Shown here: one piece after another, positions 858 through 20,575 of the stretch
Layout of the letters: each line of letters begins with the position of its first letter
How positions within the stretch are numbered: position 1 is the first letter of the stretch
Source of the DNA: Nostoc sp.
GTDB lineage: Bacteria; Cyanobacteriota; Cyanobacteriia; Cyanobacteriales; Nostocaceae
Length of the DNA stretch: 32,000 nt
Reading direction: 5' to 3'
NCBI RefSeq assembly: GCF_036917515.1
Contig: NZ_JBALDE010000015.1
Span: forward strand, 12,584-44,583
Position numbers and translations under genes: made by a program
Notes under the pieces: model-generated
What the model saw: the letters and a program-made list of their open reading frames with translations, nothing else
Database searches by the model: none
What the model was told of the DNA's origin: nothing

Positions 858-2147
858 ATGTCCTTACCCTCCTTCCTAGCGCGTCGTTCGTTCCACTATG
901 GCTGGATCGTCGCGGGTTTAACATTCCTAGCCTTGCTGGTGGCAGCCGGAATCCGCTCTGCTCCTGGAGTTTTTATAGTGCCTCTGGAACACGAGTTTGG
1001 CTGGAGTAGAGCAACTATATCTTTGGCAATCTCGATTAACTTAGTACTCTACGGGTTGATTGGGCCTTTTGCCGCCACAGTAATGGAGCGGTTTGGCATT
1101 CGCTGGATGATGGTGTTCTCACTTGCTGTCATTGCGCTTGGTGTCGGTTTAACCACTTTCATGTCAGCTTCCTGGCAGCTAGTTTTGTTGTGGGGTGTAG
1201 TTGTCGGTTCTGGTAGCGGAGTTATTGCCCTAGTTTTGGGTGCTATTGTCGTCAATCGCTGGTTTTTTGAGAAGCGGGGTTTAGTTTTGGGCATCTTAAC
1301 TGCCAGTACAGCCACGGGGCAACTGGTATTTCTGCCGATGCTGGCCTCAATAGCCGATCGCTTTGGATGGCGAGCTGCGGCTCTGGCTCTGACTGGTGCA
1401 GCACTTCTAGTTATTCCTGCGATCGCAGCCTTTATGCGCGATCGTCCGGTAGATGTCGGTTTGCGAGCCTTTGGCGACAACAGCGAAACTGTAGAAGTGT
1501 TACAGCCGAAAGTCAATTCCATTACCTCCACTCTTAACGCTCTCTGGCTAGGAATGCGTAATCGAGACTTCTGGCTGTTATTTGGTAGCTTTTTTATCTG
1601 TGGCGCAAGCACAAATGGGTTAATTGGAACTCATCTAATTCCTGCTTGTATTGACCACAATATACCTGAAGTCAAAGCTGCTGGGCTTTTAGCAATTATG
1701 GGACTATTCGATTTTTTTGGAACTACTATGTCCGGCTGGCTATCTGACCGTTGGAACAATCGCTACTTATTGTTTTGGTACTACGGGTTGCGGGGTCTAT
1801 CTTTGATTTTCTTGCCCTTCAGTTTTAACTTTTCCTTCTATGGACTTTCCATTTTCGCCGTCTTCTATGGACTTGATTGGATTGCTACCGTACCACCGAC
1901 AGTACGTCTTGTTGCCAATGTCTTTGGTAAAGAAAATGTCGGCGTGATGTTCGGTTGGATTGTCGCAGGACACCAGCTTGGTGCAGCGACAGCAGCATTC
2001 GGAGCCGGAGTGTTGAGAACTTGGACAGGTAGTTATTTACAAGCGTTTATTTTATCAGGCGTTCTCTGTCTGATTGCCGCAGTTTGTGTACTACAAATTG
2101 GTCAAACTCCCACTAAGAGTAATTATTTTGTAGAGAAGAATTCGTAA
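858..2147 (+). CDS. MFS transporter
   Basis: The 429-aa ORF is hydrophobic throughout, with about 12 predicted TM segments in a 6+6 layout around a central loop (RDRPVDVGLRAFGD). Confidence 0.9.
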   Translation: MSLPSFLARRSFHYGWIVAGLTFLALLVAAGIRSAPGVFIVPLEHEFGWSRATISLAISINLVLYGLIGPFAATVMERFGIRWMMVFSLAVIALGVGLTTFMSASWQLVLLWGVVVGSGSGVIALVLGAIVVNRWFFEKRGLVLGILTASTATGQLVFLPMLASIADRFGWRAAALALTGAALLVIPAIAAFMRDRPVDVGLRAFGDNSETVEVLQPKVNSITSTLNALWLGMRNRDFWLLFGSFFICGASTNGLIGTHLIPACIDHNIPEVKAAGLLAIMGLFDFFGTTMSGWLSDRWNNRYLLFWYYGLRGLSLIFLPFSFNFSFYGLSIFAVFYGLDWIATVPPTVRLVANVFGKENVGVMFGWIVAGHQLGAATAAFGAGVLRTWTGSYLQAFILSGVLCLIAAVCVLQIGQTPTKSNYFVEKNS

Positions 2148-2364
2148 TTGTGCTCTCACCAAAAGCTTTGTCAGAGGGATAATAACCATTAATTGTATCA
2201 AAAGTAACCCTATATAGTAAGCGAATTAAAGGTTAGGACATAATGACAAGCGTGGATGTTAGGAATAGTAATGTTTTACCTCCTGCCTCCAGCAAAGCTG
2301 CCTTCTGCCTCCTGCTATAAATCAATTTTTGGTAATGGATGAAGCGATAAAAACCAAAAGTTAA

Positions 2365-2412
2365 ACAACGCTTTATAGGCACAGAAGTTTGTCTAAGCCA
2401 ATAAAGCGTTGT
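2365..2412 (-). terminator. hairpin (12-bp perfect stem, 24-nt loop) followed on the minus strand by a T-rich tract
   Basis: acaacgctttat (2365-2376) pairs with ataaagcgttgt (2401-2412). The minus-strand downstream sequence is ttaacttttggttttta. The large loop makes it atypical for an intrinsic terminator. Confidence 0.35.
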
Positions 2413-2546
2413 AAATTTAATAAGTTTATACTACGAGCATCTACACAAACAATGTACAAAAATTACCCATAAAAAGCAATGTAAAGCACACTCTAGTTAC
2501 GAGATTGTGTATGCTTCGCTTATTCCTTTTTCTGACATCTCAATTC

Positions 2547-2765
2547 TTAAAACTGAACGACCGATATCTCTCCATGCAAATCCAATTTACCATCCACAGG
2601 CAAAGGTACTGGTGACTTGGTCGTATCTACCGAAACTCCACCAACAATTGCCATTGAACCCGCATCGTCCAGTTCCTCAAATAATTCCAAATCTCCAAAA
2701 AGCTCTTGTCCCTTGTTGCTTGCAGTTGTATTGGATACAGCCTTTTGTTAGTTATTAAACAACAT
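2547..2765 (-). CDS. candidate RiPP-type precursor mini-ORF, interrupted by an in-frame TAA at codon 6 (possibly a pseudogene; internal ATG at 2654 would give 35 aa)
   Basis: SD AGGAGA, a 6-nt spacer and ATG at 2765. Translation: MLFNN*QKAVSNTTASNKGQELFGDLELFEELDDAGSMAIVGGVSVDTTKSPVPLPVDGKLDLHGEISVVQF*. It has an acidic helical leader and a GG site, and lies on the same strand 150 nt downstream of the kinase/HopA1 pair. Confidence 0.3.
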
Positions 2766-2918
2766 GTGAGTTCTCCTGTGTTTCTTTGGTTAAATTTTGT
2801 ATCTTTTTTATTCCTAATTAAAGTCTAGTGGGTAGACACTGCATTTCTATCTATCTTCGTTGGTAATTAATTACATAGTTTTTTCCACCCAAAGACAGTG
2901 AAAAACTTTCAACTACGA

Positions 2919-4055
2919 TTAGAACAAGCTTGTATAGATATCAGTTGAGTTGGCATTCAAATGCACATGCGATAAGTCGATATTCAAACGAGAAAACTGC
3001 TCTAAGACAGCTTTTATACGCCCACTTGCTGTATCAATCCTTTGCTCAGTAGCTTCTAGCAACCCATTGGCGACAATTTGACAGCGATTCATTCCAAAGC
3101 TTTCTTTGACAGCAAATTTTTGATCTGGTTCTTCAGCCAATCCCAACCCTGGTGCTAGCTGCAAGGTGAATAGCGGCACTTCTGACTTAAAATGCGATTC
3201 GTTCTGTTTGTAAACAGTTGTGATTACTTGCCTAATTCGGTCATAATAATTTTTCTCAAAATACAAAACTCCGGAATCATAGCGATGGTAGTCTTTTGGA
3301 TTGTATAAAACCTTAAAACTAAAAGGAATCGCCATCTGATTTAGCTGCTGCGTGAGACTTTCCATCACCGCAACAGCACCAGTTAAAGTCAAATTGAAAT
3401 AAATTCGCACTAATGAGAGTTTACCTTGATCTGACCGACTTTTTAACCCCTGATTGCCAACCGCCATGTAAAAGCCATTTTGCACTCGATTCTTAGGTAA
3501 AAGGACAGCAACTGCATCACCCACACTCGCCGCGTGTTCATTCGGTTGAAGATGGCGCGATTTCTCGATATGCAGCCTCAAATTATTCTTAGTGACTGCT
3601 AATGTACCATCAGTTTCTTCTCTAACAACAGACCAACCATAGTCAAAGTAGCCTTCTCCAAAATTACTTTGATGCAATTGCTCATAAAAGTCCATATCTA
3701 CCCCCAAATAAGTATTATTCTCCAAATCTAGGGGTAAATTATTTTTCTCTGCATCTAGTGCCAAAAATCGTCGCAGAGAACCGTTGTAATATATGCCGTA
3801 GAGAAAACCCCGCAATTGCAAACTCAGATATTTTTGCTGCATTTGCGGATTGAGTTTCTGAAAACGGGCAACTGCATCAACTGGCAATTCCAATGGTTTG
3901 TAATCGGGATGGCGAATCGAAAAATCCGCGCTCACTTCCACTTTATGAACAATATCTTCTAGAACAGACAGTAATTGCCCACTGACGCCAGCCTGAATTA
4001 AAGTTTGAGTAGAATCAGGATGCATAATTATTGGCAGAATTTTCTCAAAAAGCAC
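2919..4055 (-). CDS. HopA1-family (T3SS effector HopA1-like) protein, putative phospho-Ser/Thr lyase-like
   Basis: The 378-aa ORF has a GTG start at 4055, 6 nt after the upstream stop; an alternative ATG lies at 4025. The sequence (YKPLELP...LQLRGFLYGIYYNG) matches my memory of cyanobacterial proteins annotated as HopA1 family. Confidence 0.7.
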   Translation of the reverse strand: MLFEKILPIIMHPDSTQTLIQAGVSGQLLSVLEDIVHKVEVSADFSIRHPDYKPLELPVDAVARFQKLNPQMQQKYLSLQLRGFLYGIYYNGSLRRFLALDAEKNNLPLDLENNTYLGVDMDFYEQLHQSNFGEGYFDYGWSVVREETDGTLAVTKNNLRLHIEKSRHLQPNEHAASVGDAVAVLLPKNRVQNGFYMAVGNQGLKSRSDQGKLSLVRIYFNLTLTGAVAVMESLTQQLNQMAIPFSFKVLYNPKDYHRYDSGVLYFEKNYYDRIRQVITTVYKQNESHFKSEVPLFTLQLAPGLGLAEEPDQKFAVKESFGMNRCQIVANGLLEATEQRIDTASGRIKAVLEQFSRLNIDLSHVHLNANSTDIYTSLF

Positions 4056-4061
4056 GCAAGT

Positions 4062-5195
4062 TCAAGTTAATTCAACAGCAGTACCAAAAATCGTTGACAT
4101 TGACTGTTGTGGATTGCATAATAACGTCTTTGCAACCTGCATCATAGCAATACCCGTATTGTTAAAAGATTTTTGATGCTGAATTCTGGCCTGAATCTGT
4201 TGAATCAAAGCAAAACCCACAAATTGCACAACTCGCTGCCAGAAATCGGGGCGATGTTCAAAAATTTCGGGAAACGTCTTCTCATAAGCACTAGCTAATG
4301 CAACAATTGAAGGCTGAAGCTGTTCCAAAGGCGTTATCGCCAAGCCTAAAGATTCCTCAAGACTCAAAGACTTACTGATAACTAAGCTACCCAGCCAGAT
4401 AATTACATAGCTACAAATGAGAGTTCCTAAATCCATTGCTGGATCTCCCCAAGCACAACGTTCCCAATCAATCAACTGTATAATATTTGTACCGTGTTGC
4501 TGCCACTTGCTGTGCAAAAGGATATTATTCAGCTTCAGGTCATTGTGGGTAAGACAAGAGGAAGTAAAAGTGCTACCTAATTGGGCGATCGCTTGTCCCA
4601 AATCATCATACCGCTGATAGAGGGCAAAAAACCTCAACCCGTCATCTGGCACTGAACCAAAAATTTCCGGCGAAATCCTTTCCAACCTCTCGATAAAACT
4701 TTTTACAAAGTCAAAAGCAGATTTTTGAGAATTTTGCTCGAAAAAATCTTCATATTCTGAGCGGTTGAAAGTATCACGATGAATAGTTGCAAGAATTGTA
4801 CCAATTGCCGTACCGATTTCACTGTTGAAGCTATTTTCCTTTTGGTAAAAATCAATTAAATCGCGATAGTCATCTCTGTAGGTTTGGACAATAATGGAAT
4901 TCTCTCTGTCAAAATGCAGTACCTCTGGCAAAAATAAGCGTAGGTGATTCAGTTTTGAAAATTGCTGTAAAAATTCTTTCAGCAGCCACTCACCCAAAAA
5001 CTCACCTGCTGCTTTCCCCTGTTTATGTCGCTCTTGCTTAACCAGAAGTTTACTACTGTTATGAAAACTTACTAATAAGTTAAAGTTCTTAGCGAAAACT
5101 GGCTCTATCTTACTGGTTGCTCGTTCGGAATTATTGCATAAGTTATGCTCAACTAAATACTCGAAAACATTATGAGATTTTAACAGGAATGGCAT
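4062..5195 (-). CDS. aminoglycoside-phosphotransferase (APH)/protein-kinase-like phosphotransferase
   Basis: Catalytic loop LTHNDLKLNNILL (HxDxxxxN) and IDWERCAWGDPAMDL. The ORF extends to a TTG at 5222; the first ATG is at 5195. Confidence 0.8.
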   Translation of the reverse strand: MPFLLKSHNVFEYLVEHNLCNNSERATSKIEPVFAKNFNLLVSFHNSSKLLVKQERHKQGKAAGEFLGEWLLKEFLQQFSKLNHLRLFLPEVLHFDRENSIIVQTYRDDYRDLIDFYQKENSFNSEIGTAIGTILATIHRDTFNRSEYEDFFEQNSQKSAFDFVKSFIERLERISPEIFGSVPDDGLRFFALYQRYDDLGQAIAQLGSTFTSSCLTHNDLKLNNILLHSKWQQHGTNIIQLIDWERCAWGDPAMDLGTLICSYVIIWLGSLVISKSLSLEESLGLAITPLEQLQPSIVALASAYEKTFPEIFEHRPDFWQRVVQFVGFALIQQIQARIQHQKSFNNTGIAMMQVAKTLLCNPQQSMSTIFGTAVELT

Positions 5196-9694: not shown

Positions 9695-11275
9695 ATGGCT
9701 CGTACTCCTACATTAAATTTTGATCGTGGCACATTAATTTTGCATCCACCACCACGCGGCAAAGGTTGGATGGACTATGCTACGTGGGATGATAGAGTTG
9801 AAAAATTCCGCATTCCAGCAATTAGATATCGATCGCTAGTGGAAGCACTACAAGCGGAAGATGTGAATTTTATCGATGAGGCAAAGCAATTTTATCCTGT
9901 AGATTTGGTTCCTACTCTGGAAATGGAACCCTATCCCCACCAGACGGAGGCGTTAGCGGCTTGGAAACTAGCGGGTAGACAAGGGGTGGTTGTACTTCCG
10001 ACGGCAGCGGGAAAAACTTATTTAGCGCAAATGGCGATGCAGTCAACGCCACGCACGACGCTGATTGTAGTCCCAACTTTGGATTTAATGCATCAGTGGT
10101 ATGCACATTTAGTAGCGGCTTTCCCCGATGCTGAGGTGGGATTGCTAGGGGGTGGTTCGCGGGATAGAACAGCCATTTTAGTTGCAACTTATGATAGTGC
10201 CGCAATCCATGCTGAGACGTTGGGAAATCAATATGGCTTGATTGTTTTTGATGAATGTCATCATTTACCGACAGATTTTAATCGGGTAATTGCTGAATAT
10301 GCGATCGCACCTTATCGCTTGGGACTCTCCGCGACACCAGAACGCACCGATGGTAAACACGCTGACTTAAATATCCTCATTGGTCAAGAAGTATATCGCA
10401 AACGCGCTGAAGATTTGGCGGGGAAAGCGTTAGCAGAACATGAAATTGTTCAAATTAAGGTTAAGTTATCGCAACTTGAGCGGGAAAGATACAATCAGCT
10501 CATTCAAACTCGCAATGATTTTTTGAAGCAATCAAAGATTTCTTTGAGGAGTTTGCAAGGTTGGCAAATGTTCGTGCAAATGAGTGCGCGATCACAATTT
10601 GGACGTAGAGCAATGTTAGCGCATCGAGAAGCGAAAGATATCGCTTTGGGTACTGATGGAAAATTACGAATTCTAATTGATTTATTGGCAGAACATTATC
10701 CATCACGAATTTTGATTTTTACAGCAGATAATGCAACAGTTTACCGCATTTCTCAAGAGTTGTTAATTCCGGCAATTACTCATCAAACTCCTGTAAAAGA
10801 ACGGCATGAGATATTAACCAAGTTTCGGGAGGGTAAATATAATACTTTAGTTGCTTCTCATGTGTTGAATGAAGGGGTTGATGTGCCTGCGGCTTCTGTG
10901 GCAATTATTTTATCGGGGACGGGTTCGGCTAGGGAGTATACTCAGCGCTTGGGGAGGGTTTTACGGAAGGGGAATATCGAGAATAAGCAGGCGATTTTAT
11001 ATGAGGTAGTAGCGGAGGATACGAGTGAGGAGGGGACTTCGGCTAGGAGAAGAGGACAAGGGGACAAGGGGACAAAGGGGCAAGGGGAAAGGAAAGGGAA
11101 GTTACAGGTTGTGTATGGGAGTGGGAAGGAAAGGAGTTTGAAAGCTGCAGAACAGTTAGAAATTAATTATTCAACCGGAACAAAATTTAAAATCCAAAAT
11201 TTAGATGTTACCGACAGATTTACTGATGCATCGCCAAAACGGGGAGGAGATCATTCCGAAGAGACTGAAGATTGA
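9695..11275 (+). CDS. XPB/Rad25-like superfamily-2 DNA helicase (DEAD/DEAH box helicase)
   Basis: N-terminal FDRGTLILHPPP (XPB damage-recognition-like domain), Walker A LPTAAGKTYLA, motif II FDECHHL, motif III LSATPER, motif VI QRLGRVLR. ATG at 9695 is preferred over the ORF-track start at 9617, which runs through a heptamer repeat. Confidence 0.85.
   Translation: MARTPTLNFDRGTLILHPPPRGKGWMDYATWDDRVEKFRIPAIRYRSLVEALQAEDVNFIDEAKQFYPVDLVPTLEMEPYPHQTEALAAWKLAGRQGVVVLPTAAGKTYLAQMAMQSTPRTTLIVVPTLDLMHQWYAHLVAAFPDAEVGLLGGGSRDRTAILVATYDSAAIHAETLGNQYGLIVFDECHHLPTDFNRVIAEYAIAPYRLGLSATPERTDGKHADLNILIGQEVYRKRAEDLAGKALAEHEIVQIKVKLSQLERERYNQLIQTRNDFLKQSKISLRSLQGWQMFVQMSARSQFGRRAMLAHREAKDIALGTDGKLRILIDLLAEHYPSRILIFTADNATVYRISQELLIPAITHQTPVKERHEILTKFREGKYNTLVASHVLNEGVDVPAASVAIILSGTGSAREYTQRLGRVLRKGNIENKQAILYEVVAEDTSEEGTSARRRGQGDKGTKGQGERKGKLQVVYGSGKERSLKAAEQLEINYSTGTKFKIQNLDVTDRFTDASPKRGGDHSEETED
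11054..11101. repeat. G-rich short tandem repeat (GGGGACAA-type) inside the 3' end of the helicase ORF
   Basis: ggacaaggggacaaggggacaaaggggcaaggggaaaggaaagggaag, translated as GQGDKGTKGQGERKGK. Confidence 0.8.
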
Positions 11276-12419
11276 TAATAAAACTTCAGAGTTGGCGATT
11301 GAGTTAATTAATTATTTTCTATCAGCAGTGGGGAAAACTCAAGGTGTGCTTGAGCGACAACTGACTGATTTTGAAGGAGATTCTACAGATTATCGGCTGA
11401 AGCGAGGGTTAGCTTATATTCTCAAAAGCAGTTTTTGTACTTTTGAGGTGGTAAGTCCTCTGGAACCACAAATGTTAAGAGAACGAGTGTTTTCGTTGGC
11501 TGCAAAGTCTGTTTCTAGTCGAGAATCAACACAAGTTACTTTGAGTAAAATTGCTGATGAGTTAACTCAAGAACTTGAACGGGAAGTTTTATTGGAACAG
11601 GTTCGCAATGGACTATATGCTGATTTATCTGAAAATAAAATTTTGACTGTTTTTGATGCACCAACAGCGCCAGATTTATTAAATAGGTATAACTTATCTC
11701 AAGTACAGGGTGTGTTTTATAAAGCCAGTCAACTTGTATTAAATGCTCACCGGAATGTTCCGGGAGAGTATAAGTTGTTATTTCGCTATCTGAAATTGTT
11801 TCAATTGATGGCTTATATTGAGGGCGATGCTGACCACGGGTTTACAATTACGATAGATGGGCCGACGAGTTTGTTTAATCCTAGTACGCGATATGGGTTA
11901 GCGATCGCTAAACTTATTCCGGCTTTACTTCACGTTACTAAATGGAGTCTTTCTTCGATTCTCCAAACTCGTGATGCTTATACAAATACTTGGAAAACTG
12001 GGCGTTTTACTCTCAATTCTGAATGTGGTTTGGTATCCCACTATCCACCAGGAAAGCCCTACGATAGTATGTTAGAAGCATCCTTTGCTGATAAGTGGGA
12101 TGCGTTAAAAAGTGGTTGGGCGTTAGAGCGAGAAGTTGATTTGATCCCAATTCCTGGTAGTGTGATGATCCCTGATTTTCGCTTAGTGCATCCTGATGGA
12201 CGCACCTTCTTATTAGAAATTGTTGGTTATTGGCGACCTGAATATTTACAAAAGAAGTTTTCTCAGGTGCGGCGGGCTGGACGTGACGACTTAATTTTGG
12301 CAATTTCCGAGCGACTTAATTTAGAAAAGGCGGGAGTAAAATTAAATGATGTTCCCGCCAGAATTGTTTGGTTTAAAGATAAGTTATTGCCGAAAGCTGT
12401 GTTAGCTGTAATGGATTAA
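11205..12419 (+). CDS. DUF790 family protein (Bax1-like PD-(D/E)XK endonuclease partner of XPB)
   Basis: N-terminal MLPTDLL...GEEIIPKRL and C-terminal IPDFRLVHPDGRTFLLEIVGYWRPEYLQKK match my memory of DUF790/Bax1. The gene overlaps the helicase ORF by 71 nt. Confidence 0.8.
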   Translation: MLPTDLLMHRQNGEEIIPKRLKIDNKTSELAIELINYFLSAVGKTQGVLERQLTDFEGDSTDYRLKRGLAYILKSSFCTFEVVSPLEPQMLRERVFSLAAKSVSSRESTQVTLSKIADELTQELEREVLLEQVRNGLYADLSENKILTVFDAPTAPDLLNRYNLSQVQGVFYKASQLVLNAHRNVPGEYKLLFRYLKLFQLMAYIEGDADHGFTITIDGPTSLFNPSTRYGLAIAKLIPALLHVTKWSLSSILQTRDAYTNTWKTGRFTLNSECGLVSHYPPGKPYDSMLEASFADKWDALKSGWALEREVDLIPIPGSVMIPDFRLVHPDGRTFLLEIVGYWRPEYLQKKFSQVRRAGRDDLILAISERLNLEKAGVKLNDVPARIVWFKDKLLPKAVLAVMD

Positions 12420-12434
12420 TTAAGGAGAAATAAG

Positions 12435-12677
12435 ATGAAAAGTATAGAAACAATTGCAATAGTTACTAAAGATGGTAAAATTACAGCGCAAATACCATTG
12501 GATATTCCAGAGGGTGAACATCAGGTGGTAATAGTAATTGATGAAAAGCCATTGGCACAGAAAGTAGAGAATAAAGAAAAGCGTCCTCCTCTAAACTTTC
12601 CTGTAGATAATTATGGTTATTGGCCTGAGAATCTTTCTCTGAGACGTGAGGATATGTATGGTGATTGGGGTCGCTAA
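12435..12677 (+). CDS. putative antitoxin of a PIN-toxin pair
   Basis: An 80-aa ORF with SD AAGGAGA, located 16 nt after the DUF790 stop. It overlaps the start of the downstream PIN gene. Confidence 0.55.
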   Translation: MKSIETIAIVTKDGKITAQIPLDIPEGEHQVVIVIDEKPLAQKVENKEKRPPLNFPVDNYGYWPENLSLRREDMYGDWGR

Positions 12678-13110
12678 CTCTGTATTTCTGGATACGAATA
12701 TTTTAGTTTATGCAAATGTGTCCGAATCTCCCTTTCACCAAGCAGCACTACAGGCTATTGAAAGCCTTTATGACGCAGGAATTGAATTATGGATTAGTCG
12801 CCAGGTATTGCGGGAATTCTTAATGACTCTCAGTCGTCCACAAGCATTGATGAATCCCCGACCTGTTGCGCTCATAATTGACCGTACCCGATTTTTTCAA
12901 GCTCAATTTCAAGTAGCTGACGATACCGCTCAAGTGACAGAAAGACTTTTATCTCTAATGGAGCAAATTACTATTGGTGGTAAGCAAGTTCATGATGCAA
13001 ATATTGTCGCCACGATGCTAGTTTATGGTATTCCTCAATTACTAACTCACAACACAGGTGATTTTGCGAGATTTTCTGGGTTAATTACTGTGTTGCCGTT
13101 ACAAAATTAG
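12658..13110 (+). CDS. vapC: PIN-domain ribonuclease toxin (VapC family)
   Basis: N-terminal FLDTNILVYA and C-terminal DANIVATM...LLTHNTGDF are acidic PIN motifs. Possible starts are ATG 12658 and GTG 12646. Confidence 0.8.
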   Translation: MVIGVANSVFLDTNILVYANVSESPFHQAALQAIESLYDAGIELWISRQVLREFLMTLSRPQALMNPRPVALIIDRTRFFQAQFQVADDTAQVTERLLSLMEQITIGGKQVHDANIVATMLVYGIPQLLTHNTGDFARFSGLITVLPLQN

Positions 13111-13297: not shown

Positions 13298-13987
13298 TTA
13301 ACCCCAAACACTTCTGTGTTCCCAAAACTGGGTGACTCTTTTTTCCCACTGCTCCCAATAATCTTTGATGACTGCTGATTCAAACCAAAATACCTCTGCT
13401 GGCATTTCTGGAATCGCTACAACCAAGAGAGCGTGCTTTAGCTGAATGCCATAATCTTGATAATACTCGTTAGCTGCTCCTATGTACGCCGTAAGTTGCA
13501 GTGGATGTTCATATAAATGCTCAATTGAACCTTTAGGTTTATCTGCTGTTTTCCACTCGCAAATACAGGGAATACCTTGATAGCTGGCAATACAATCAAC
13601 TTTGCCAGAATAACCCAAATTATTATGGAAAACTGAGCCTTCCACGAGTCTAACTGTGTCGATTTGTTTTAAAACTGGCTTGATACTCTCCCAATAAGGG
13701 CGACTTGCTTCGGGACAAACAGGGTTTTGACCAAGGAGGTAGCGCTCAATTTGCTTGTGTGTATGGGTTCCCCGACGACTAGCAGATGTAGTAATGCGGG
13801 TAGCTTCTTCTGTACCAACACGCGCTTTCCAGTTTAATAATCTGTCTCTATCTGCTTGTGATTTGGTGGCATTAAGTATTGTAGTCACGCTGGGAAAGCG
13901 ATTTCCCTTGGCATCTACATAATATTGTTTACCATTTTCTCTCTTGGATGTGGCATTAATACGTGGTAGCAGTTGGGTATCATGCAT
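13298..13987 (-). CDS. RecB-family PD-(D/E)XK nuclease (phage-type exonuclease-like)
   Basis: A 229-aa ORF with FPSVTTIL, GKVDC (D), CEWKT (ExK) and QLTAY (QxxxY), in the order typical of RecB/Cas4-type nuclease cores. Confidence 0.65.
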   Translation of the reverse strand: MHDTQLLPRINATSKRENGKQYYVDAKGNRFPSVTTILNATKSQADRDRLLNWKARVGTEEATRITTSASRRGTHTHKQIERYLLGQNPVCPEASRPYWESIKPVLKQIDTVRLVEGSVFHNNLGYSGKVDCIASYQGIPCICEWKTADKPKGSIEHLYEHPLQLTAYIGAANEYYQDYGIQLKHALLVVAIPEMPAEVFWFESAVIKDYWEQWEKRVTQFWEHRSVWG

Positions 13988-14085: not shown

Positions 14086-14520
14086 ATGGAACCTGTAACA
14101 TTAACAGCAGTTGCAACAGCGATCGCTACTATAGTTTTAACTAAAGCTTTAGAAAAAACTGGCGAAAAGCTTGGGGAAGCAGGGTTAGAAGCAAGCGGTA
14201 AATTAATCGTACAGCTACGTAATAAAAATAAATTGCCTTTGTTAGCAGAGGCAACACCAGAAAATACACAGCCGCCGTTAGATTATGGCAAAGCTGTACT
14301 AGAGTTGAAAGCCGCAGCAGACGCAGATACCGAAATTGCTCAATCAGTGCGGGACGTTGAAGCAGCAGTAAACGCCGATCCTCAAGTAGCGCCAAAAGTC
14401 CAAGTTTTAGCAAATGGGCTGAACTCGCAACCAGCAACTATCATTAATTCTACAAAGTTAGCTGACTCTATTAAAAACGTCTTTCAAGGAAATGTTTTCA
14501 CTGGTACTAATATTTTCTGA
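14086..14520 (+). CDS. small helical protein with hydrophobic N-terminal helix and N/Q/G/T-rich C-terminal tail (possible effector/adaptor module of the downstream STAND NTPase)
   Basis: ATG start, 144 aa. It ends at TGA 14518-14520 in the same reading frame as the next ORF. Confidence 0.55.
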   Translation: MEPVTLTAVATAIATIVLTKALEKTGEKLGEAGLEASGKLIVQLRNKNKLPLLAEATPENTQPPLDYGKAVLELKAAADADTEIAQSVRDVEAAVNADPQVAPKVQVLANGLNSQPATIINSTKLADSIKNVFQGNVFTGTNIF

Positions 14521-16671
14521 TTGCATTCGCCTGGAGGAGAACAGGTAAAGTCAAATCTCGCTAGCGAAATACCGCAAAATTTGCCCTTAAGTGGGGTGGT
14601 GAAGTTTGTTGGACGTGAAGTTGAATTGCGAAATCTCCACCAAATGTTACAGGAAAATGAACAGGTGAGTATAGCTGCTGTTGCTGGCATGGGTGGACTG
14701 GGTAAAACAGAACTGGCCTTACAATATGCAAAGGCTCACCGTGAAATTTACAAAGGTGGAATTTGCTGGTTGCTGGCAAAGGCTGGAGATGTGGGTATTC
14801 AAGTTGTGCAGTTTGCCAGAACGCAGCTTGACTTAAACCCACCAGAAGATTTGGATTTACCCGCGCAAGTGCAATACTGCTTTCGGCTTTGGCGCGAAGG
14901 TAATGTGCTGCTAGTATTAGACGATGTTGGAGAATATCAACAAGTTAAGCCTTATCTACCTTCGCCATCTTCTCGATTTAAAGTGTTGATTACCACGCGC
15001 CAACACTTAGGAGCATCTATAAAGGAATTATCTTTAGATGTATTGCAACCAAAAGCAGCGCTGGAGTTATTAAAGTCATTTTTTAAAGAAACACCACAGC
15101 GAATTGAGCAAGAATTGGCTGTTGCAAATCAATTGTGTGAGTGGTTGGGATATTTGCCTTTGGGTTTGGAATTAGTCGGGCGATATTTGGCGCGAAAACA
15201 AGACCTTTCTTTCACAGAAATGTTGCGGCGGTTGGAGAAAAAGCGACTAGAACAACCCGCCCTTATTAAACCAGAAGGCGACATGACAGCACAACGGGGT
15301 GTGTTAGCAGCCTTTGAGTTGAGTTGGCAGGAATTACAAGACAGCGATAAGCAGCTTGGCTGTTTGCTGAGTTTATTTGCCGCCGCACCTATATCTTGGA
15401 AGTTGGTGGAACAGTGTTTACCAAAGGAAGACGAGGAAGAGTTAGAGGAAATTAGAGATGATACCTTGCTAAAACTGCATTTGCTACAGCGTAAAGGTGA
15501 GGGAATTTACCAACTGCATCCACTGTTAAGGGAGTTTTTCCAATATAAGCTTACAGGTTTAGAGCAGGCAGAAGAATTAAAGCGATCGCTTTGTCGGGTA
15601 ATGGTAGCAGTTGCCAAAGATATTCCTGAAACACCTACCCTTAAGAAAATCACCAATGTTTCTCCCGCCATTCCTCATATAGCTGAAGTAGCGAACAATC
15701 TCATTCAATGCGTTAGCGATGATGATTTAATTTGGGCTTTCCTCGGTAACGCTACATTTTATGATGGTCAAGGTTTATATAACCAAGCTTTACCTTGGTA
15801 TGAGAAGTGTCTAGAAGTCACTAAAAAGTGCTTGGGAGAAGAACATCCATCTGTCGCCCAAAGCCTCAACAACCTAGCGCAACTCTACTACTCCCAAGGC
15901 AGATACAGCGAAGCCGAACCTCTTTGCATCCAAGCTTTGGTAATCAGGCGCAAGCTGCTGGGAGAAGAACATCCAGATATTGCATTTAGCCTCAACAACC
16001 TAGCGTTACTCTACCGTTCCCAAGGCAGATACAGCGAAGCCGAACCTCTTTGCATCCAAGCTTTAGCACTCAGCCGTAAACTACTGGGAGAAGAACATCC
16101 AGATGTTGCATTTAGCCTCAACAACCTAGCGTTACTCTACCGTTCCCAAGGCAGATACAGCGAAGCCGAACCTCTTTGCATCCAAGCTTTGGCACTCAGG
16201 CGCAAGCTGCTGGGAGAAGAACATCCAGATGTTGCATTTAGCCTCAACAACCTAGCAGTACTCTACCGTTCCCAAGGCAGATACAGCGAAGCCGAACCTC
16301 TTTGCATCCAAGCTTTGGTAATCAGGCGCAAGCTGCTGGGAGAAGAACATCCAGATGTTGCATTTAGCCTCAACAACCTAGCGTCACTCTACCGTTCCCA
16401 AGGCAGGTACAGCGAAGCCGAACCCCTTTACATCCAAGCTTTAGCACTCAGGCGTAAACTGCTGGGAGAAGAACATCCTGATGTCGCCAATATCCTCAAC
16501 AACCTAGCGGTACTCTATCATGACCAAGGCAGATACAGCGAAGCCGAACCCCTTTACATCCAAGCTTTGGATATTCTTGAGCGACAGTTAGGGGTGAATC
16601 ATCCCGATACTGTTCATGTCCGTAATGGTTTAGCATATCTACGCGATCGCCTCCCCTCAAATCAAGAATAG
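14521..16671 (+). CDS. NB-ARC (STAND) NTPase with C-terminal TPR repeats, NLR-like
   Basis: FVGRE, Walker A GMGGLGKTELA, Walker B LLVLDDV, VLITTR, GYLPLGLELVG (GLPL) and YQLHPLLREF (MHD-like), followed by seven 42-aa TPRs. The true start is uncertain: TTG 14521, GTG about 14596, or ATG 14644. Confidence 0.85.
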   Translation: MHSPGGEQVKSNLASEIPQNLPLSGVVKFVGREVELRNLHQMLQENEQVSIAAVAGMGGLGKTELALQYAKAHREIYKGGICWLLAKAGDVGIQVVQFARTQLDLNPPEDLDLPAQVQYCFRLWREGNVLLVLDDVGEYQQVKPYLPSPSSRFKVLITTRQHLGASIKELSLDVLQPKAALELLKSFFKETPQRIEQELAVANQLCEWLGYLPLGLELVGRYLARKQDLSFTEMLRRLEKKRLEQPALIKPEGDMTAQRGVLAAFELSWQELQDSDKQLGCLLSLFAAAPISWKLVEQCLPKEDEEELEEIRDDTLLKLHLLQRKGEGIYQLHPLLREFFQYKLTGLEQAEELKRSLCRVMVAVAKDIPETPTLKKITNVSPAIPHIAEVANNLIQCVSDDDLIWAFLGNATFYDGQGLYNQALPWYEKCLEVTKKCLGEEHPSVAQSLNNLAQLYYSQGRYSEAEPLCIQALVIRRKLLGEEHPDIAFSLNNLALLYRSQGRYSEAEPLCIQALALSRKLLGEEHPDVAFSLNNLALLYRSQGRYSEAEPLCIQALALRRKLLGEEHPDVAFSLNNLAVLYRSQGRYSEAEPLCIQALVIRRKLLGEEHPDVAFSLNNLASLYRSQGRYSEAEPLYIQALALRRKLLGEEHPDVANILNNLAVLYHDQGRYSEAEPLYIQALDILERQLGVNHPDTVHVRNGLAYLRDRLPSNQE
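15831..16570 (+). repeat. 126-bp tandem repeat (about 6 units, near-identical at DNA level) encoding the TPR array
   Basis: caaggcagatacagcgaagccgaacc recurs at 15895, 16021, 16147, 16273, 16399 and 16525, an exact 126-nt period. Confidence 0.9.
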
Positions 16672-16789
16672 ACGGTTTTGTGCAAAGCGTACCGTGATAA
16701 AACTGAAAAGTGCGATCGCCTAAACTAAAATTCATATTAAACTAAGTAAAAATGCCTGATTACTTACTCAAAATGGCATTTGACTTATT

Positions 16790-17045
16790 CAAAATCAGCT
16801 TTTGCTTTCTCAAAAGCAGCTTTTACTTTCTCATTTTGGTGTTTTCCGCAAGCAAAAGCAGCTTTTACTTACTCAAACCCCAGTTTGCTTTCTCATTTTA
16901 GTGTTTTCCGCAAGTAAAATCAGCTTTTACTTTCTCAAAAGCAGCTTTTACTTACTCAAACCCCAGTTTGCTTTCTCATTTTGGTGTTTTCCGCAAGTAA
17001 AATCAGCTTTTACTTTCTCAAACTCCAGTTTGCTTACTCATTTGA
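16790..17045. repeat. complex tandem repeat (about 83-bp composite unit built from 21-nt and 62-nt sub-units, about 3 copies)
   Basis: cagcttttactttctcaaaag and cagcttttacttactcaaaccccagtttgctttctcatttt(g/a)gtgttttccgcaagtaaaat alternate. Confidence 0.8.
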
Positions 17046-17325: not shown

Positions 17326-17625
17326 TTACAGGGTATCCATCAGCTCAAGAGTCGGCTCCTTGTTGAGGTCAATATTATCAATTACTGGTAGAGAATGTCC
17401 CAGCTTTAGCCCAAGCAAAATCCAGTCTTCCAGTGTTGAGCGTAATTCATCCTCACACTCGCGCAAAGTTGATGCAAAAGCTATCACTCCTTTGCAAACA
17501 GGAATTCTACCTGCAAATGTACCATCTTCTAACTTGTCATAAATTGCTTGAGCGTAGACGCAAAGCGGCTTGTCGTCAGACATCGCTCGATCAACATAGT
17601 CGCTCAAAATAAACCTTATCGCCAT
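17326..17625 (-). CDS. hicB: HicB-family antitoxin
   Basis: A 99-aa ORF. The YAQAIYDKLEDGTFAGRIPVCKGVIAFASTLRECEDELRSTLEDWI pattern is typical of the HicB N-terminal domain. Confidence 0.7.
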   Translation of the reverse strand: MAIRFILSDYVDRAMSDDKPLCVYAQAIYDKLEDGTFAGRIPVCKGVIAFASTLRECEDELRSTLEDWILLGLKLGHSLPVIDNIDLNKEPTLELMDTL

Positions 17626-17747: not shown

Positions 17748-18136
17748 TTACTCAAATAAATCAAATCCCTTTTCGTTTCTCAGCTTTCTGTCAAAAGTTG
17801 CTGTTAAACTACAACCATAATCTTGAGCAATCGTACCAATTAAATAATCAGAAAAATCTGCACTTCCCTGCTTAAATCGTTGTAATGCTTGATAAATTAC
17901 AGAACGATTTTCTAACTCAAACACTGAACATTGCAGCATCAAGTCTATGGTGTTACTAATTTCTTCTTTACTAAATTGATAAGGGTTCCCGCGCAAAACC
18001 CAGACTAATTCACAAAGAACTATATTAGCAACAAAACATTGCTCTTCCCTTTCGATAATTTCAGCAGCTTGCTTCCACTGCTTTTATCATCTTTTGTCAA
18101 GTAACGTACTAAAATATTTGTATCAAGTCCAATCAC
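17748..18136 (-). pseudogene. vapC: vapC (PIN-domain toxin) disrupted by a frameshift
   Basis: GTG at 18136 gives VIGLDTNILVRYLTKDD, then the frame runs into a stop. The +1 frame continues KQWKQAAEIIEREEQCFVANIVLCELVWVLRGNPYQ... to 17748. The break coincides with an A4 run (plus-strand T run 18082-18085). Confidence 0.7.
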
Positions 18137-18368
18137 TTGAACCTTCTTGGATTGCTACTTCCATTTCTTCTAAAGTTGCGCTTTTCATTCCCGGACGGTG
18201 TAAAAGTCCTGATAAGCTTTGAATAGGAACATTTAAAGGAATCAGTTTGACAATTCCATTTTCATCGATGACAAAATCAACCTTGCTACCAGTATCCAAA
18301 TTAAGATAATCCCTAATTTCTTGAGGGATAGTTATTTGTCCTTTGCTCGTGATAGTCGCACTAGCCAT
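18123..18368 (-). CDS. vapB: AbrB/MazE/SpoVT-family antitoxin (VapB-like)
   Basis: N-terminal TITSKGQITIPQEIRDYLNL is a swapped-hairpin AbrB-type motif. The gene overlaps the vapC start by 14 nt. Confidence 0.8.
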   Translation of the reverse strand: MASATITSKGQITIPQEIRDYLNLDTGSKVDFVIDENGIVKLIPLNVPIQSLSGLLHRPGMKSATLEEMEVAIQEGSSDWT

Positions 18369-18766: not shown

Positions 18767-20530
18767 TCATGATTCCTCAAATAAGCGATCGCCTTGATGT
18801 AAACGTTCCGCAATTTGATAAGTTTGTCCTTGAGATCGCATTGTCGGAGAATGAGCAGCTAAATACCGAGATGCGGCCACTAGTACATGAATTCCAGCCG
18901 AAGTTTTACCAAGGAAAGAATACTGACGAAAAGCGGCTTCCATTTCTTGAACGACATGAAAATCACGGTTTTCTCGCAGCATCAATTTCCCCAGTTTTGC
19001 CATCAGTCTTTCAGGACTACCACCACTGTATAAATAATTAGCAACTAATTGCCCTGTCTGGTTTACTTGCTGCTGACGGTTTAATAAATCTGGTAGCTGC
19101 TGGAGCAATTGTTCGGGATTTTCTACGATGTCTTTGGGTTCTGGCAGCCTTGCTGGTGGGACATTCAAAAAACGATTTAAATATACACTCATCGCCGCAT
19201 CAAACACACCTCTTAGTAGTTCGACTGTTGGTACTCTTCGTAAAGCTTGATGTACGGCATTTGCATACGTAAATGGATGGTGGGCTGAATTCCAATCTCC
19301 AAAGTCATTAATCGTGTGGAAACGAGCTACTCGTAATGCTGCTGTATAAGTAACTACACCAGCTAATTGTTCTTCAGTACAACCTGCTTTCAGTGCATTC
19401 AATAGCGAGTCTGCGATCGCTTGTGGGTCTTCACCCAATAAGATTGGTACTAGTTCATCTGTTTGTGACCAATTTCCTTGTCGAGATTTTCCTACACTTA
19501 ATACAGTCGGTAATTGCTCAAAAGCTGACTCTAATATTGCCACCAAATCTACAGGGTAGCGCCAGGAATTGGATTCTTCCATCCGGGAAGCATTGGCTAA
19601 ACCCGAAACTAGGCTAGCCAGAATTGATTCTGCTGCTTGCCAAGCTATAGTATCAAGTGCTTCTAATGCTTTATTGATGAAATCAACTGTATGCCCAACA
19701 TCAAGATAGCGACGATCTGTAGCAGCACAGAACAGCATATCTGCTATTTGCTTTGAATTAGCTCCAGAACGAATAGCAGATACTAAACATCTTTGTGCTG
19801 CTTCCGCATCCCGTACCTGAATAAATTGGCGAAACCAGTTTTTGAGAGTTGCAAAATCTACTTTAGCATTGGGTAATGGGTGAACGACAAACTCTGGTGG
19901 CGCACCCGCACTATCATTAGCTACTGCCGACAGTCCGTGAAATAAAGCACGAGGTTTGTCTTCGACATCAAGATAAGGTAGTAGATTCATCATACAGGTG
20001 TGGATAGTCAAACCTGAACTCCAACCCGCTTTGTTATAACGAGTGCCAAATTCTAGCCCCATAAGAAATGGTTCTGTCGCTTTCACTCCTATATCTAAAA
20101 GTGCCAGCGTTGATTTCGCAATCACTAAAGAAATATTCTGCTCTAAACCGTCTAGCAGACGTTGGCGGTGGTGAGCATAAGGGTTAACTGGTGGTGCTAA
20201 ATTTATCCAAACTTCACCATCACGGATTTCTACTGGGAAACAAGGAACATCATCTGCCCACGAGTCAAACGTTCCACCACTAGCAAGATCAAAGCGGGCA
20301 TAATGCCAAGGACAGGTAACAATACCATCTTTGCAAGTGCTTCCTTGTAAGGGAAAGCCCATGTGAGGACAACGGTTATCAATTGCGTAAACAGTATTAT
20401 TTGAGTAAAACAAAGCAATCGTATGCTTTTCCTTGTGGACTAACAAACTGCCTGCTGCCTGAACTTCTGCAAGTTTAGCAACACGGATATAATTGTCTGT
20501 TTTCGTCGCATCTTCAAATATTTGAGTCAC
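18767..20530 (-). CDS. Rieske (2Fe-2S) domain protein with a long uncharacterised helical C-terminal region
   Basis: CPHMGFPL ... CPWHYARF (CxH/CxxH). GTG at 20530 has a GGAG about 9 nt upstream. The ORF track extends to a TTG at 20551, which lies within a heptamer repeat. Confidence 0.8.
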   Translation of the reverse strand: MTQIFEDATKTDNYIRVAKLAEVQAAGSLLVHKEKHTIALFYSNNTVYAIDNRCPHMGFPLQGSTCKDGIVTCPWHYARFDLASGGTFDSWADDVPCFPVEIRDGEVWINLAPPVNPYAHHRQRLLDGLEQNISLVIAKSTLALLDIGVKATEPFLMGLEFGTRYNKAGWSSGLTIHTCMMNLLPYLDVEDKPRALFHGLSAVANDSAGAPPEFVVHPLPNAKVDFATLKNWFRQFIQVRDAEAAQRCLVSAIRSGANSKQIADMLFCAATDRRYLDVGHTVDFINKALEALDTIAWQAAESILASLVSGLANASRMEESNSWRYPVDLVAILESAFEQLPTVLSVGKSRQGNWSQTDELVPILLGEDPQAIADSLLNALKAGCTEEQLAGVVTYTAALRVARFHTINDFGDWNSAHHPFTYANAVHQALRRVPTVELLRGVFDAAMSVYLNRFLNVPPARLPEPKDIVENPEQLLQQLPDLLNRQQQVNQTGQLVANYLYSGGSPERLMAKLGKLMLRENRDFHVVQEMEAAFRQYSFLGKTSAGIHVLVAASRYLAAHSPTMRSQGQTYQIAERLHQGDRLFEES

Positions 20531-20543
20531 GTCGCTTCGCTCC

Positions 20544-20575
20544 AAATTCAAAATTCAAAATTCAAAATTCAAAAT
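20544..20575. repeat. heptamer tandem repeat (AAAATTC)n, STRR-like
   Basis: aaattcaaaattcaaaattcaaaattcaaaatt. Confidence 0.85.

Follow-up and report, generated by a model that had tools for sequence, protein, structure and literature searches.

What is the meaning of a single stop codon that forms the only break between a small protein and a large signaling protein lying behind it in the same frame? The question is raised by a locus of Nostoc sp. in a 32,000-nucleotide stretch of DNA (contig NZ_JBALDE010000015.1, positions 12,584 to 44,583; hereafter "the window"), where a small open reading frame, ORF1, is followed on the same strand, in the same frame and with a gap of 0 nucleotides (nt) by ORF2, which encodes a STAND nucleoside triphosphatase (NTPase) with NB-ARC and TPR domains, one TGA being all that separates the two. 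The hypothetical read-through product would have 144 + 1 + 716 = 861 residues. The first in-frame ATG downstream of the TGA lies at 14644 (codon 41), and the P-loop GMGGLGKT follows 14 codons further on, at 14686. An initial annotation, made from the letters of the window, had given the coordinates of both frames and of the TGA, the shared frame, a fusion of about 861 amino acids, the position of the first ATG relative to the P-loop, and the TTG directly after the stop as the start codon of ORF2; all of this was reproduced on the sequence. As explanations it had offered, with a recent nonsense mutation of an all-in-one gene in the lead, a genuine two-gene arrangement and stop-codon read-through, and the comparative data favor the last of these. 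We suggest that the locus probably represents a conserved cassette of the Nostocales, in which a Bell-like effector gene with an amyloid-type tail is joined in frame, via a leaky UGA, to a STAND/NLR NTPase, and in which programmed read-through would yield free effector together with a minority of fusion protein. Shown here are the conservation of the TGA and its context, the covariation of a hairpin behind it, protein-level selection on a post-stop segment that lacks a start, the lack of a matching motif on the NTPase side, and the presence of two-gene equivalents in relatives.

Comparison across homologs, proposed in the initial annotation as the means to learn whether the two halves are fused or split, was carried out on the window plus 80 loci (81 in all) drawn from bacterial genomes at one genome per species, with ORF1 homologs 54–95% identical to ORF1. 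The halves are split by a TGA at the same position in 71 of the 81 loci (window included): TGA closes the small frame, and the coding sequence of a STAND NTPase runs on directly behind it in the same phase. The count was made with a regular expression, which matched no sites beyond those junctions. Neighboring genes would share a frame by chance in only about one case in three, and seldom without a gap; recurring in 71/81 loci, the zero-gap, same-frame TGA junction is therefore beyond chance expectation. Scanning metagenomes by the RNA motif added 21 further loci, 21 of 21 with the same in-frame TGA junction. The junction holds across the genera Nostoc, Anabaena, Nodularia, Scytonema, Hassallia, Tolypothrix, Brasilonema, Calothrix, Fischerella, Aulosira and Aetokthonos. 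The in-frame extensions past the TGA reach 500–1300 codons, the peptide directly after the stop is conserved (L-[QHY]-S-P-x-x-E-x-[VT]-K-x-N/T-P), and at least two NTPase classes are found downstream of the junction, with the P-loop near residue 55 or near residue 110. This continuity is masked by annotation pipelines, which set the NTPase start 70–82 nt 3′ of the stop.

The base that follows the stop is conserved along with it. TGAC is found at the focal site in 76/81 loci; of the stops that end 245 further long ORFs of these loci, 27% are TGA and 10 (4%) are TGAC, the rarest TGA context. UGA-C, and specifically UGA-CUA, are classic leaky termination contexts (PMC7026636), and a U at +4 has been linked to reduced read-through (PMC5289835). 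The leaky context (UGA with +4C, or CUA) is thus present in the family and absent from the window copy, which reads TGA-T and is the sole read-through-type locus with T at +4. TGAT was otherwise seen among the 81 loci only in L066 and L067, which have the canonical two-gene layout. The change is silent (Leu), creates the TTG, and swaps the weakest stop context for the strongest; the window copy may consequently read through less, start its NTPase on its own, or be heading to decay. The same TGA-TTG occurs in locus L102, taken from a separate Logan assembly of SRR28386271, a run which is possibly also the read source of the metagenome-assembled genome of Nostoc sp. whose hypothetical protein MEH2078670.1/WP_335183934.1 is identical to ORF1.

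Behind the stop lies a candidate RNA element of an inner hairpin within an outer helix (Table 1), which was assessed on a junction alignment of 70 distinct sequences. The inner hairpin is predicted by RNAalifold without guidance, and its five core pairs are kept in 92–100% of the sequences. Compensatory changes were found in four of the six pairs tested (60 cells), a level reached by 0 of 500 shuffles, and sliding the partner strand lowers pairing from 92% to 7–43%. Alignment columns 21 and 35 vary together (Fisher p = 6e-9, with no correction for phylogeny). Some of the compensations couple a synonymous change in Pro with an R/Q change, or a Pro-to-Ser with a Val-to-Thr change, both of the latter non-synonymous; such coupling, extending to non-synonymous pairs, argues for a constraint at the level of RNA rather than of protein. 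The apical loop varies in sequence and length and is purine-rich (GGAG/GGGA). For the outer helix (UGACU with AGUYA in the family) the evidence is weaker, with 97.7% pairing over the 70 sequences, variation restricted to G-C/G-U and no compensatory change. Synonymous divergence is 0.13–0.20 over codons 1–12/13 as against 0.47–0.64 downstream, and the ratio of nonsynonymous to synonymous divergence (pN/pS) is about 1 or higher there, the signature of an overlapping RNA element. An Rfam scan of 14300–14800 returned sub-threshold chance matches only, with no selenocysteine insertion sequence (SECIS) and no known recoding element.

How would the segment following the stop come to be translated? 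In all read-through-type relatives the codon after the TGA is CTG, CTA, CTC or CCA/CCG, none of them a start codon, the TTG of the window being the sole exception, and the first in-frame ATG, GTG or TTG lies 17–76 codons past the TGA. In five NACHT-like loci (L042, L051, L054, L056 and L059) the first start comes only past a conserved YVPLGLVERK block. Between the RNA element and the first available start, the linker nevertheless evolves as protein: in the TGA frame its pN/pS is 0.22–0.38 at a pS of 0.39–0.57, with a ratio of 0.38 over codons 14–23 in the NACHT-like group (pS 0.57, pN 0.22) and of 0.22 over the NLPLSG block of the NB-ARC group. In the other two frames pN/pS ranges over 0.3–2.6 and stops are present. 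All of the indel events in the post-stop segment, at least six, are multiples of three. Because it has no upstream start in frame and yet evolves as protein, this segment is most simply explained as being translated through the TGA. Neither half shows relaxed constraint, pN/pS being 0.27 downstream of the stop and ORF1 being conserved as a family.

The short ORF1 protein is clearly a real and conserved product. Searching 5.8 billion proteins with ORF1 returned 249 homologs from the Nostocales, down to 50% identity, and among the best 120 of these 249 all are short (87–199 amino acids, mostly 139–152). A profile of the family matched 396 of 1.84 billion cluster representatives, nearly all of 130–160 amino acids, with four long proteins among the best 150 of the 396. 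ORF1 starts MEPVTLTAVATAIATIVL, with Glu at position 2, has 144 amino acids and is predicted to be helical. This is as in the short effectors of the Bell/HeLo type, whose N-terminal signature is a hydrophobic helix with an acidic residue at position 2 or 3 in a short protein of some 120–140 amino acids (10.1101/2020.01.06.895854). The N-terminal helix is the best-conserved part of the family alignment. An AlphaFold2 model from a 28-sequence alignment has seven helices and a disordered tail at low confidence (predicted local distance difference test score 61). ORF1 gave no significant family in Pfam, NCBIfam or PADLOC; Foldseek with the model against PDB found nothing with E < 1, and among PDB sequences, in which Bab (9H9V) should be present, a profile search gave no meaningful match. 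The tail is rich in N, Q and G, at least three unrelated C-terminal tails occur at that position across the family, and the tail of ORF1 itself, NVFQGNVFTGTNIF, resembles the published BASS2 motif ("GPVFQGQTFS" / "VFQGQTFS"). With its N-terminal helix, Glu 2, helical body and disordered tail, we regard ORF1 as a putative Bell-like helical effector carrying a C-terminal amyloid-type tail.

The published Bell/BASS pairs repeat the tail motif at the N-terminus of the neighboring NLR, and three relatives (L064, L066 and L067) have this canonical layout. The small proteins of L066 and L067 are 64–65% identical to ORF1 (residues 1–135), and their tail/NLR motif pairs nearly equal the BASS5 pairs in Table S2 of Dyrka et al. 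(10.1101/2020.01.06.895854). In the three relatives the NTPase N-terminus has a tail motif copy of its own (KLAEKIGQVVIGGTGSIQNQSF vs MPEDAGKFAEKIGVYAQNSIVNINNQNIG), local alignment giving z = 4.8 in L066 and z = 9.4 in L067 relative to shuffles. In the window the same comparison gives z = −0.8, and in the TGA-in-frame loci a median of −0.4, that is, no similarity. The canonical loci also differ at the junction: in L066 and L067 the small gene ends TGA-T with a second in-frame stop a few codons on, in L064 the small gene is split by an internal TAA, and the NTPase starts in another frame shortly past the small-gene stop (11 nt in L066 and L067). Both the canonical and the TGA-in-frame layout occur with the same NACHT-like type of NTPase. 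A further arrangement is seen in the metagenome locus L106, where a gene for a free Bell domain and tail (267–701, tail KAVFQGGTFHGDFHF) precedes a continuous Bell-tail-linker-NACHT gene (about 919–3327, protein P0266), whose linker DRDRAKVNR is homologous to the post-TGA peptide ERERVKLNP; judged by its sequence, L106 makes by two genes the two products predicted from read-through. In metagenome loci the upstream modules of the cassette include a second helical family, a third helical protein and an alpha/beta-hydrolase. Being found after different upstream modules and before different NTPases, the cassette is modular.

We envisage the following mechanism. ORF1 and ORF2 would be transcribed as one mRNA, on which most ribosomes would stop at the UGA and release the 144-residue effector-tail protein. 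A minority, aided by the weak UGA-C context and the hairpin 8 nt downstream, would read the UGA as sense, most likely by way of tRNA-Trp or another near-cognate tRNA, and produce the 861-residue effector-tail-linker-NB-ARC-TPR fusion, so that read-through would supply the otherwise motif-less NTPase with an amyloid motif. Binding of a trigger by the TPR array would then lead to NB-ARC oligomerization, clustering of the tails and nucleation of an amyloid, which would template the excess free effector and lead to damage of the membrane and death of the cell, on the pattern of Bell/BASS and HET-S/NWD2 signaling. The ratio of sensor to effector would be set by the efficiency of read-through, as in Gag/Gag-Pol. 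We lean, with somewhat less assurance than for the recoding itself, towards the full reading of a portable Nostocales recoding cassette (UGA-C plus a hairpin 8 nt on) by which one gene would give an abundant free amyloid-tailed death effector and a rare effector-tail-NLR fusion serving both as sensor and as amyloid nucleus.

Several points weigh against this proposal and call for caution. The case for read-through is drawn from comparative genomics only, and the sequences are related, so that the counts for covariation and conservation overstate the number of independent events. The hairpin is short (5–6 base pairs) and its single-sequence folding energy is not exceptional (z = −1.08), its support therefore lying in covariation and not in stability. 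To our knowledge, read-through stimulated by RNA structure has been documented mainly in viruses and eukaryotes and not for bacterial chromosomes. Neither by sequence nor by fold does ORF1 match any Pfam family or the solved Bab (Babybell) domain, and its model is of low confidence. At codons 19–26 an in-frame GTG or TTG is retained in most NB-ARC-type loci; gene callers use it, and the NTPase could be initiated there independently. Finally, the window copy, with its +4U and a TTG right after the stop, has the context least favorable to read-through.

The last two points bear on the competing explanations. In a two-gene operon without recoding, the NTPase would start at the TTG of the window or at the GTG/TTG found 19–26 codons on in relatives, the hairpin would serve translational coupling or regulation, and the partners would interact without a shared amyloid motif. 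Gene callers do annotate ORF1 and the NTPase separately, an in-frame GTG or TTG precedes FVGRE in most NB-ARC-type loci, the purine-rich loop (GGAG/GGGA) is Shine-Dalgarno-like, and short distances between Bell and NLR genes are common. Of the two-gene option in the initial annotation, the part that stands is the short protein, which is real and conserved. What the initial annotation had named as the sign of a true two-gene system, a conserved start with a Shine-Dalgarno sequence for the NTPase, was looked for among relatives and not found: the codon after the stop is CTN or CCN, the first start comes 17–76 codons on, and no start codon lies 5–10 nt past the purine-rich loop. The stretch 5′ of the candidate starts evolves as protein, and in the TGA frame only; in the five NACHT-like loci the first start lies past conserved N-terminal blocks; and a two-gene operon leaves the preference for TGA over TAA/TAG, the +4C and the constant frame unexplained and the NTPase without a motif to couple it to the effector. 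We consider it unlikely as a replacement for read-through, while independent initiation at a downstream GTG/TTG is possible as an additional route beside it. Decay confined to this strain is a separate matter. Here the +4 C-to-U change would largely have ended read-through, leaving the short effector and perhaps a TTG-started, motif-less NTPase in a system that is non-functional or rewired. The window is the only read-through-type locus of the 81 with TGA-T, a U at +4 strengthens termination (PMC5289835), and the sister loci L012, L013, L044, L045, L071 and L075 are visibly decayed. On the other hand, ORF2 is intact at 716 amino acids with full NB-ARC and TPR domains, the outer helix keeps a U-G pair at the changed base, the inner hairpin is undisturbed, and a lone, synonymous-looking change may be neutral; we regard strain-level decay as a minority view that nonetheless deserves some weight.

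Far less can be said for the other two explanations. Selenocysteine, with the hairpin as a bacterial SECIS for SelB, has in its favor that bacterial selenoprotein genes are formally laid out in this way, with an in-frame UGA and a conserved hairpin close behind it. Against it, the apical loop varies in sequence and length, the site lies in an inter-domain linker and not in a redox center, no homolog carries Cys at the UGA position (at the junction the fused P0266 has F-S-K, Ser-Lys), no Rfam family matches, and the cassette is present in 6.41-Mb Anabaena/Nostoc genomes. The Sec-decoding trait has been reported absent from cyanobacteria (PMC1794560). Selenocysteine is highly improbable, and the initial annotation, which saw no evidence for selenocysteine, is borne out on this point by the variable loop, the Cys-less fused homolog and the reported lack of the trait. 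A recent nonsense mutation, or pseudogenization, of an all-in-one Bell-NB-ARC-TPR gene is refuted by the comparison, even though rare fused Bell-NTPase proteins are known (P0266, P0227 and P0192) and the +4 C-to-T change is unique to the window copy: some 100 loci, spread over many genera of the Nostocales, have the TGA at exactly this position, the TGA is kept across small proteins of 54–95% identity, at least three tails and at least two NTPase classes, purifying selection persists on both halves, and short proteins of the ORF1 type are the rule in the 1.84-billion-protein library. Sequencing error was rejected on some 100 independent assemblies with the same TGA, reassignment of the code on the 27% of ordinary long ORFs in these loci that end in TGA, frameshifting on the unchanged frame across the junction, and transcriptional slippage on the lack of a homopolymer run at the site.

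The programmed read-through that we favor would combine two known kinds of system, Bell/BASS-NLR signaling and stop-codon recoding. With the Bell/BASS pairs of filamentous cyanobacteria (10.1101/2020.01.06.895854; for Bab/Agp, 10.1101/2024.11.07.622273) it shares a short helical protein whose N-terminal helix is hydrophobic, with an acidic position 2 and a variable N/Q/G-rich tail, placed directly upstream of and collinear with an NB-ARC/NACHT and TPR gene, and the close relatives L066 and L067 are themselves canonical BASS5-type pairs; it differs in that the NTPase of the window has no N-terminal copy of the motif and is instead fused in frame behind a TGA and hairpin. Programmed read-through signals such as the coat/A1 UGA of Q-beta, the gag-pol UAG of murine leukemia virus with its 8-nt spacer and pseudoknot, and UGA-CUA (PMC7026636) resemble the cassette in a leaky UGA with +4C, often UGA-CUA, in a structured RNA about 8 nt downstream, in a long in-frame extension, and in a predicted minor fusion and major short product with Gag/Gag-Pol-like stoichiometry. 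They differ from the Nostocales cassette, which is chromosomal, bacterial, order-wide and located in immune-type genes, has a small hairpin in place of a pseudoknot, and is known from sequence alone. The predicted long product has the same Bell-tail-linker-STAND order as the all-in-one Bell/HeLo-type NLRs (for example P0266 of L106, with its homologous linker); there, however, the fusion is a continuous ORF and a second gene provides the free Bell-tail protein, whereas in the window one gene with a stop would provide both. The likeness to bacterial selenoprotein genes ends with the in-frame UGA and the close hairpin, as the cassette has no conserved SelB-type loop and no Cys homologs, its site is in a non-catalytic linker, and its host phylum is reported to lack Sec decoding.

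For viruses and eukaryotes, functional read-through of stop codons belongs to textbook knowledge; for cellular genes of bacteria it is nearly anecdotal. A review table of bacterial read-through names Q-beta and the levansucrase of B. subtilis (PMC7026636). We found no mention of stop codons or read-through in the Bell/BASS literature (10.1101/2020.01.06.895854; 10.1101/2024.11.07.622273; a 2026 review), and no prior description in the literature on read-through combined with NLR, Bell, BASS, Nostoc or antiphage. The published Bell/BASS screen needed matching motifs in two annotated proteins, so that a layout with an in-frame stop was undetectable to it; annotation splits these loci into a hypothetical protein, an "intergenic" gap of about 70 nt and an N-terminally trimmed NLR, to which motif-pair screens are blind. 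Should the proposal be correct, this would, as far as we know, be the first case in chromosomal genes of bacteria of programmed read-through that is both widespread and associated with RNA structure, and it would be a third way of coupling an NLR sensor to its effector, beside all-in-one NLRs and two-gene motif pairs. It could also explain many of the Bell tails that have no partner motif, the published survey having found 346 matching pairs as against 1816 non-redundant Bell C-termini. A prokaryotic NLR system would then need neither a second promoter nor a second gene to set how much sensor it makes relative to executioner, and the roughly 100 cyanobacterial immune-type loci would offer a natural, evolutionarily validated model of bacterial recoding.

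Some individual loci merit description. In L012, L013, L044, L045, L071 and L075 the small gene, the TGA and the hairpin are kept and the NTPase ORF is truncated or shifted, so that they appear to be decay intermediates. Scytonema hofmanni UTEX 2349 (NZ_KK073768.1, 2398948–2412347) holds two complete cassettes about 5 kb apart (L027 and L048), with a third on the same scaffold (L040), and the cassette appears to have been amplified into paralogous arrays in this strain. In the 6.41-Mb Anabaena/Nostoc genomes (L103–L105; 4001–4459 and downstream) the cassette reads TGA CTA CAG TCG CCC GAA CAG GAA CGG; the NTPase start is annotated at 4529 or 4541 in two of them, and AP018216.1 has no call despite an in-frame ORF of 655 codons. 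P0266 of L106 has C-terminal transmembrane segments, and no ATG is obvious at its Bell N-terminus. In L082 an alpha/beta-hydrolase (3–869; PGAP1/DUF676-like, weak Pfam matches) with an N/Q-rich tail, NIGVLNQNTTIENQNITQNL, is followed at the junction (870) by the same TGA and hairpin and by an NB-ARC/TPR protein, a layout that recalls the fungal SesB-type amyloid-controlled lipases. Viral contigs scanned with two versions of the RNA motif gave no matches and thus no sign of a phage origin.

In the NTPase itself, Pfam places NB-ARC at residues 34–244 of ORF2 (2.5e-18), followed by seven TPR_12/TPR_10 units (TPR_12 5e-113), and the NCBIfam model FxSxx_TPR scores 299.9 bits, just below its cutoff of 300. 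The length of the NTPase ranges from about 535 to 1151 amino acids among full-length related loci; this spread, and the identity of the repeats in the window (Table 1), suggest that TPR units of the sensor domain are gained and lost rapidly. Two distant loci, L072 and L074, have an insertion of eight codons (VVTERSRS / VLTERSRS) just 5′ of the P-loop, at about codons 40–50 after the TGA, in otherwise typical NB-ARC proteins.

Table 1. Features of the locus and its surroundings, in coordinates of the window.
Feature	Position	Strand	Remarks
DUF790 gene	11205–12419	+	
80-amino-acid ORF overlapping PIN-domain gene	12435–13110	+	
PD-(D/E)XK nuclease gene	13298–13987	−	
ORF1	14086–14520	+	ATG start at 14086; 144 amino acids; ends with TGA 14518–14520
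N-terminal hydrophobic helix of ORF1, MEPVTLTAVATAIATIVLTKALEKT	14086–14160	+	acidic residue at position 2; helix 6–25 in the model
C-terminal tail of ORF1, KLADSIKNVFQGNVFTGTNIF, putative amyloid signaling motif	14455–14517	+	alternative tails here among family members; disordered in the model
Conserved in-frame TGA, proposed read-through (recoding) site	14518–14520	+	TGA in 79/81 loci
Whole RNA element: outer helix UGAUU (14518–14522) with AGUCA (14549–14553) around spacer and inner hairpin	14518–14553	+	minimum free energy fold of the single sequence shows both helices
+4 base	14521	+	T in the window, C in relatives
Linker, LHSPGGEQVKSNLASEIPQNLPLSG	14521–14595	+	in relatives this stretch has no start codon of its own
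ORF2, NB-ARC and TPR STAND NTPase	14521–16671	+	TTG at 14521 is the first codon; 716 amino acids
Inner hairpin: GCCUG (14529–14533) / loop GAGGAGAA / CAGGU (14542–14546)	14529–14546	+	starts 8 nt after the stop
Walker A / P-loop GMGGLGKT	14686–14709	+	motif in ORF2
Array of 126-nt TPR-coding units, variable ligand-sensing region	15833–16570	+	5.9 copies, 91% nucleotide identity
Terminator-like hairpin 3′ of ORF2	16798–16817	+	none between ORF1 and ORF2
UPF0150/HicB-like gene	17326–17625	−	
MazE/AbrB-type antitoxin gene	18123–18368	−	
Rieske-domain protein gene	18767–20551	−	

Promoter and terminator scans of the locus gave counts at chance level. The placement of the terminator-like hairpin would fit a single transcription unit for ORF1 and ORF2, which is only suggestive, such sites not exceeding the number expected by chance. 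It falls within AT-rich tandem repeats (21-nt and 62-nt periods) that lie directly 3′ of ORF2 (16760–16960). With toxin-antitoxin and nuclease-type genes on its flanks, the cassette, as far as gene content indicates, is set in what looks like a defense or mobile island.

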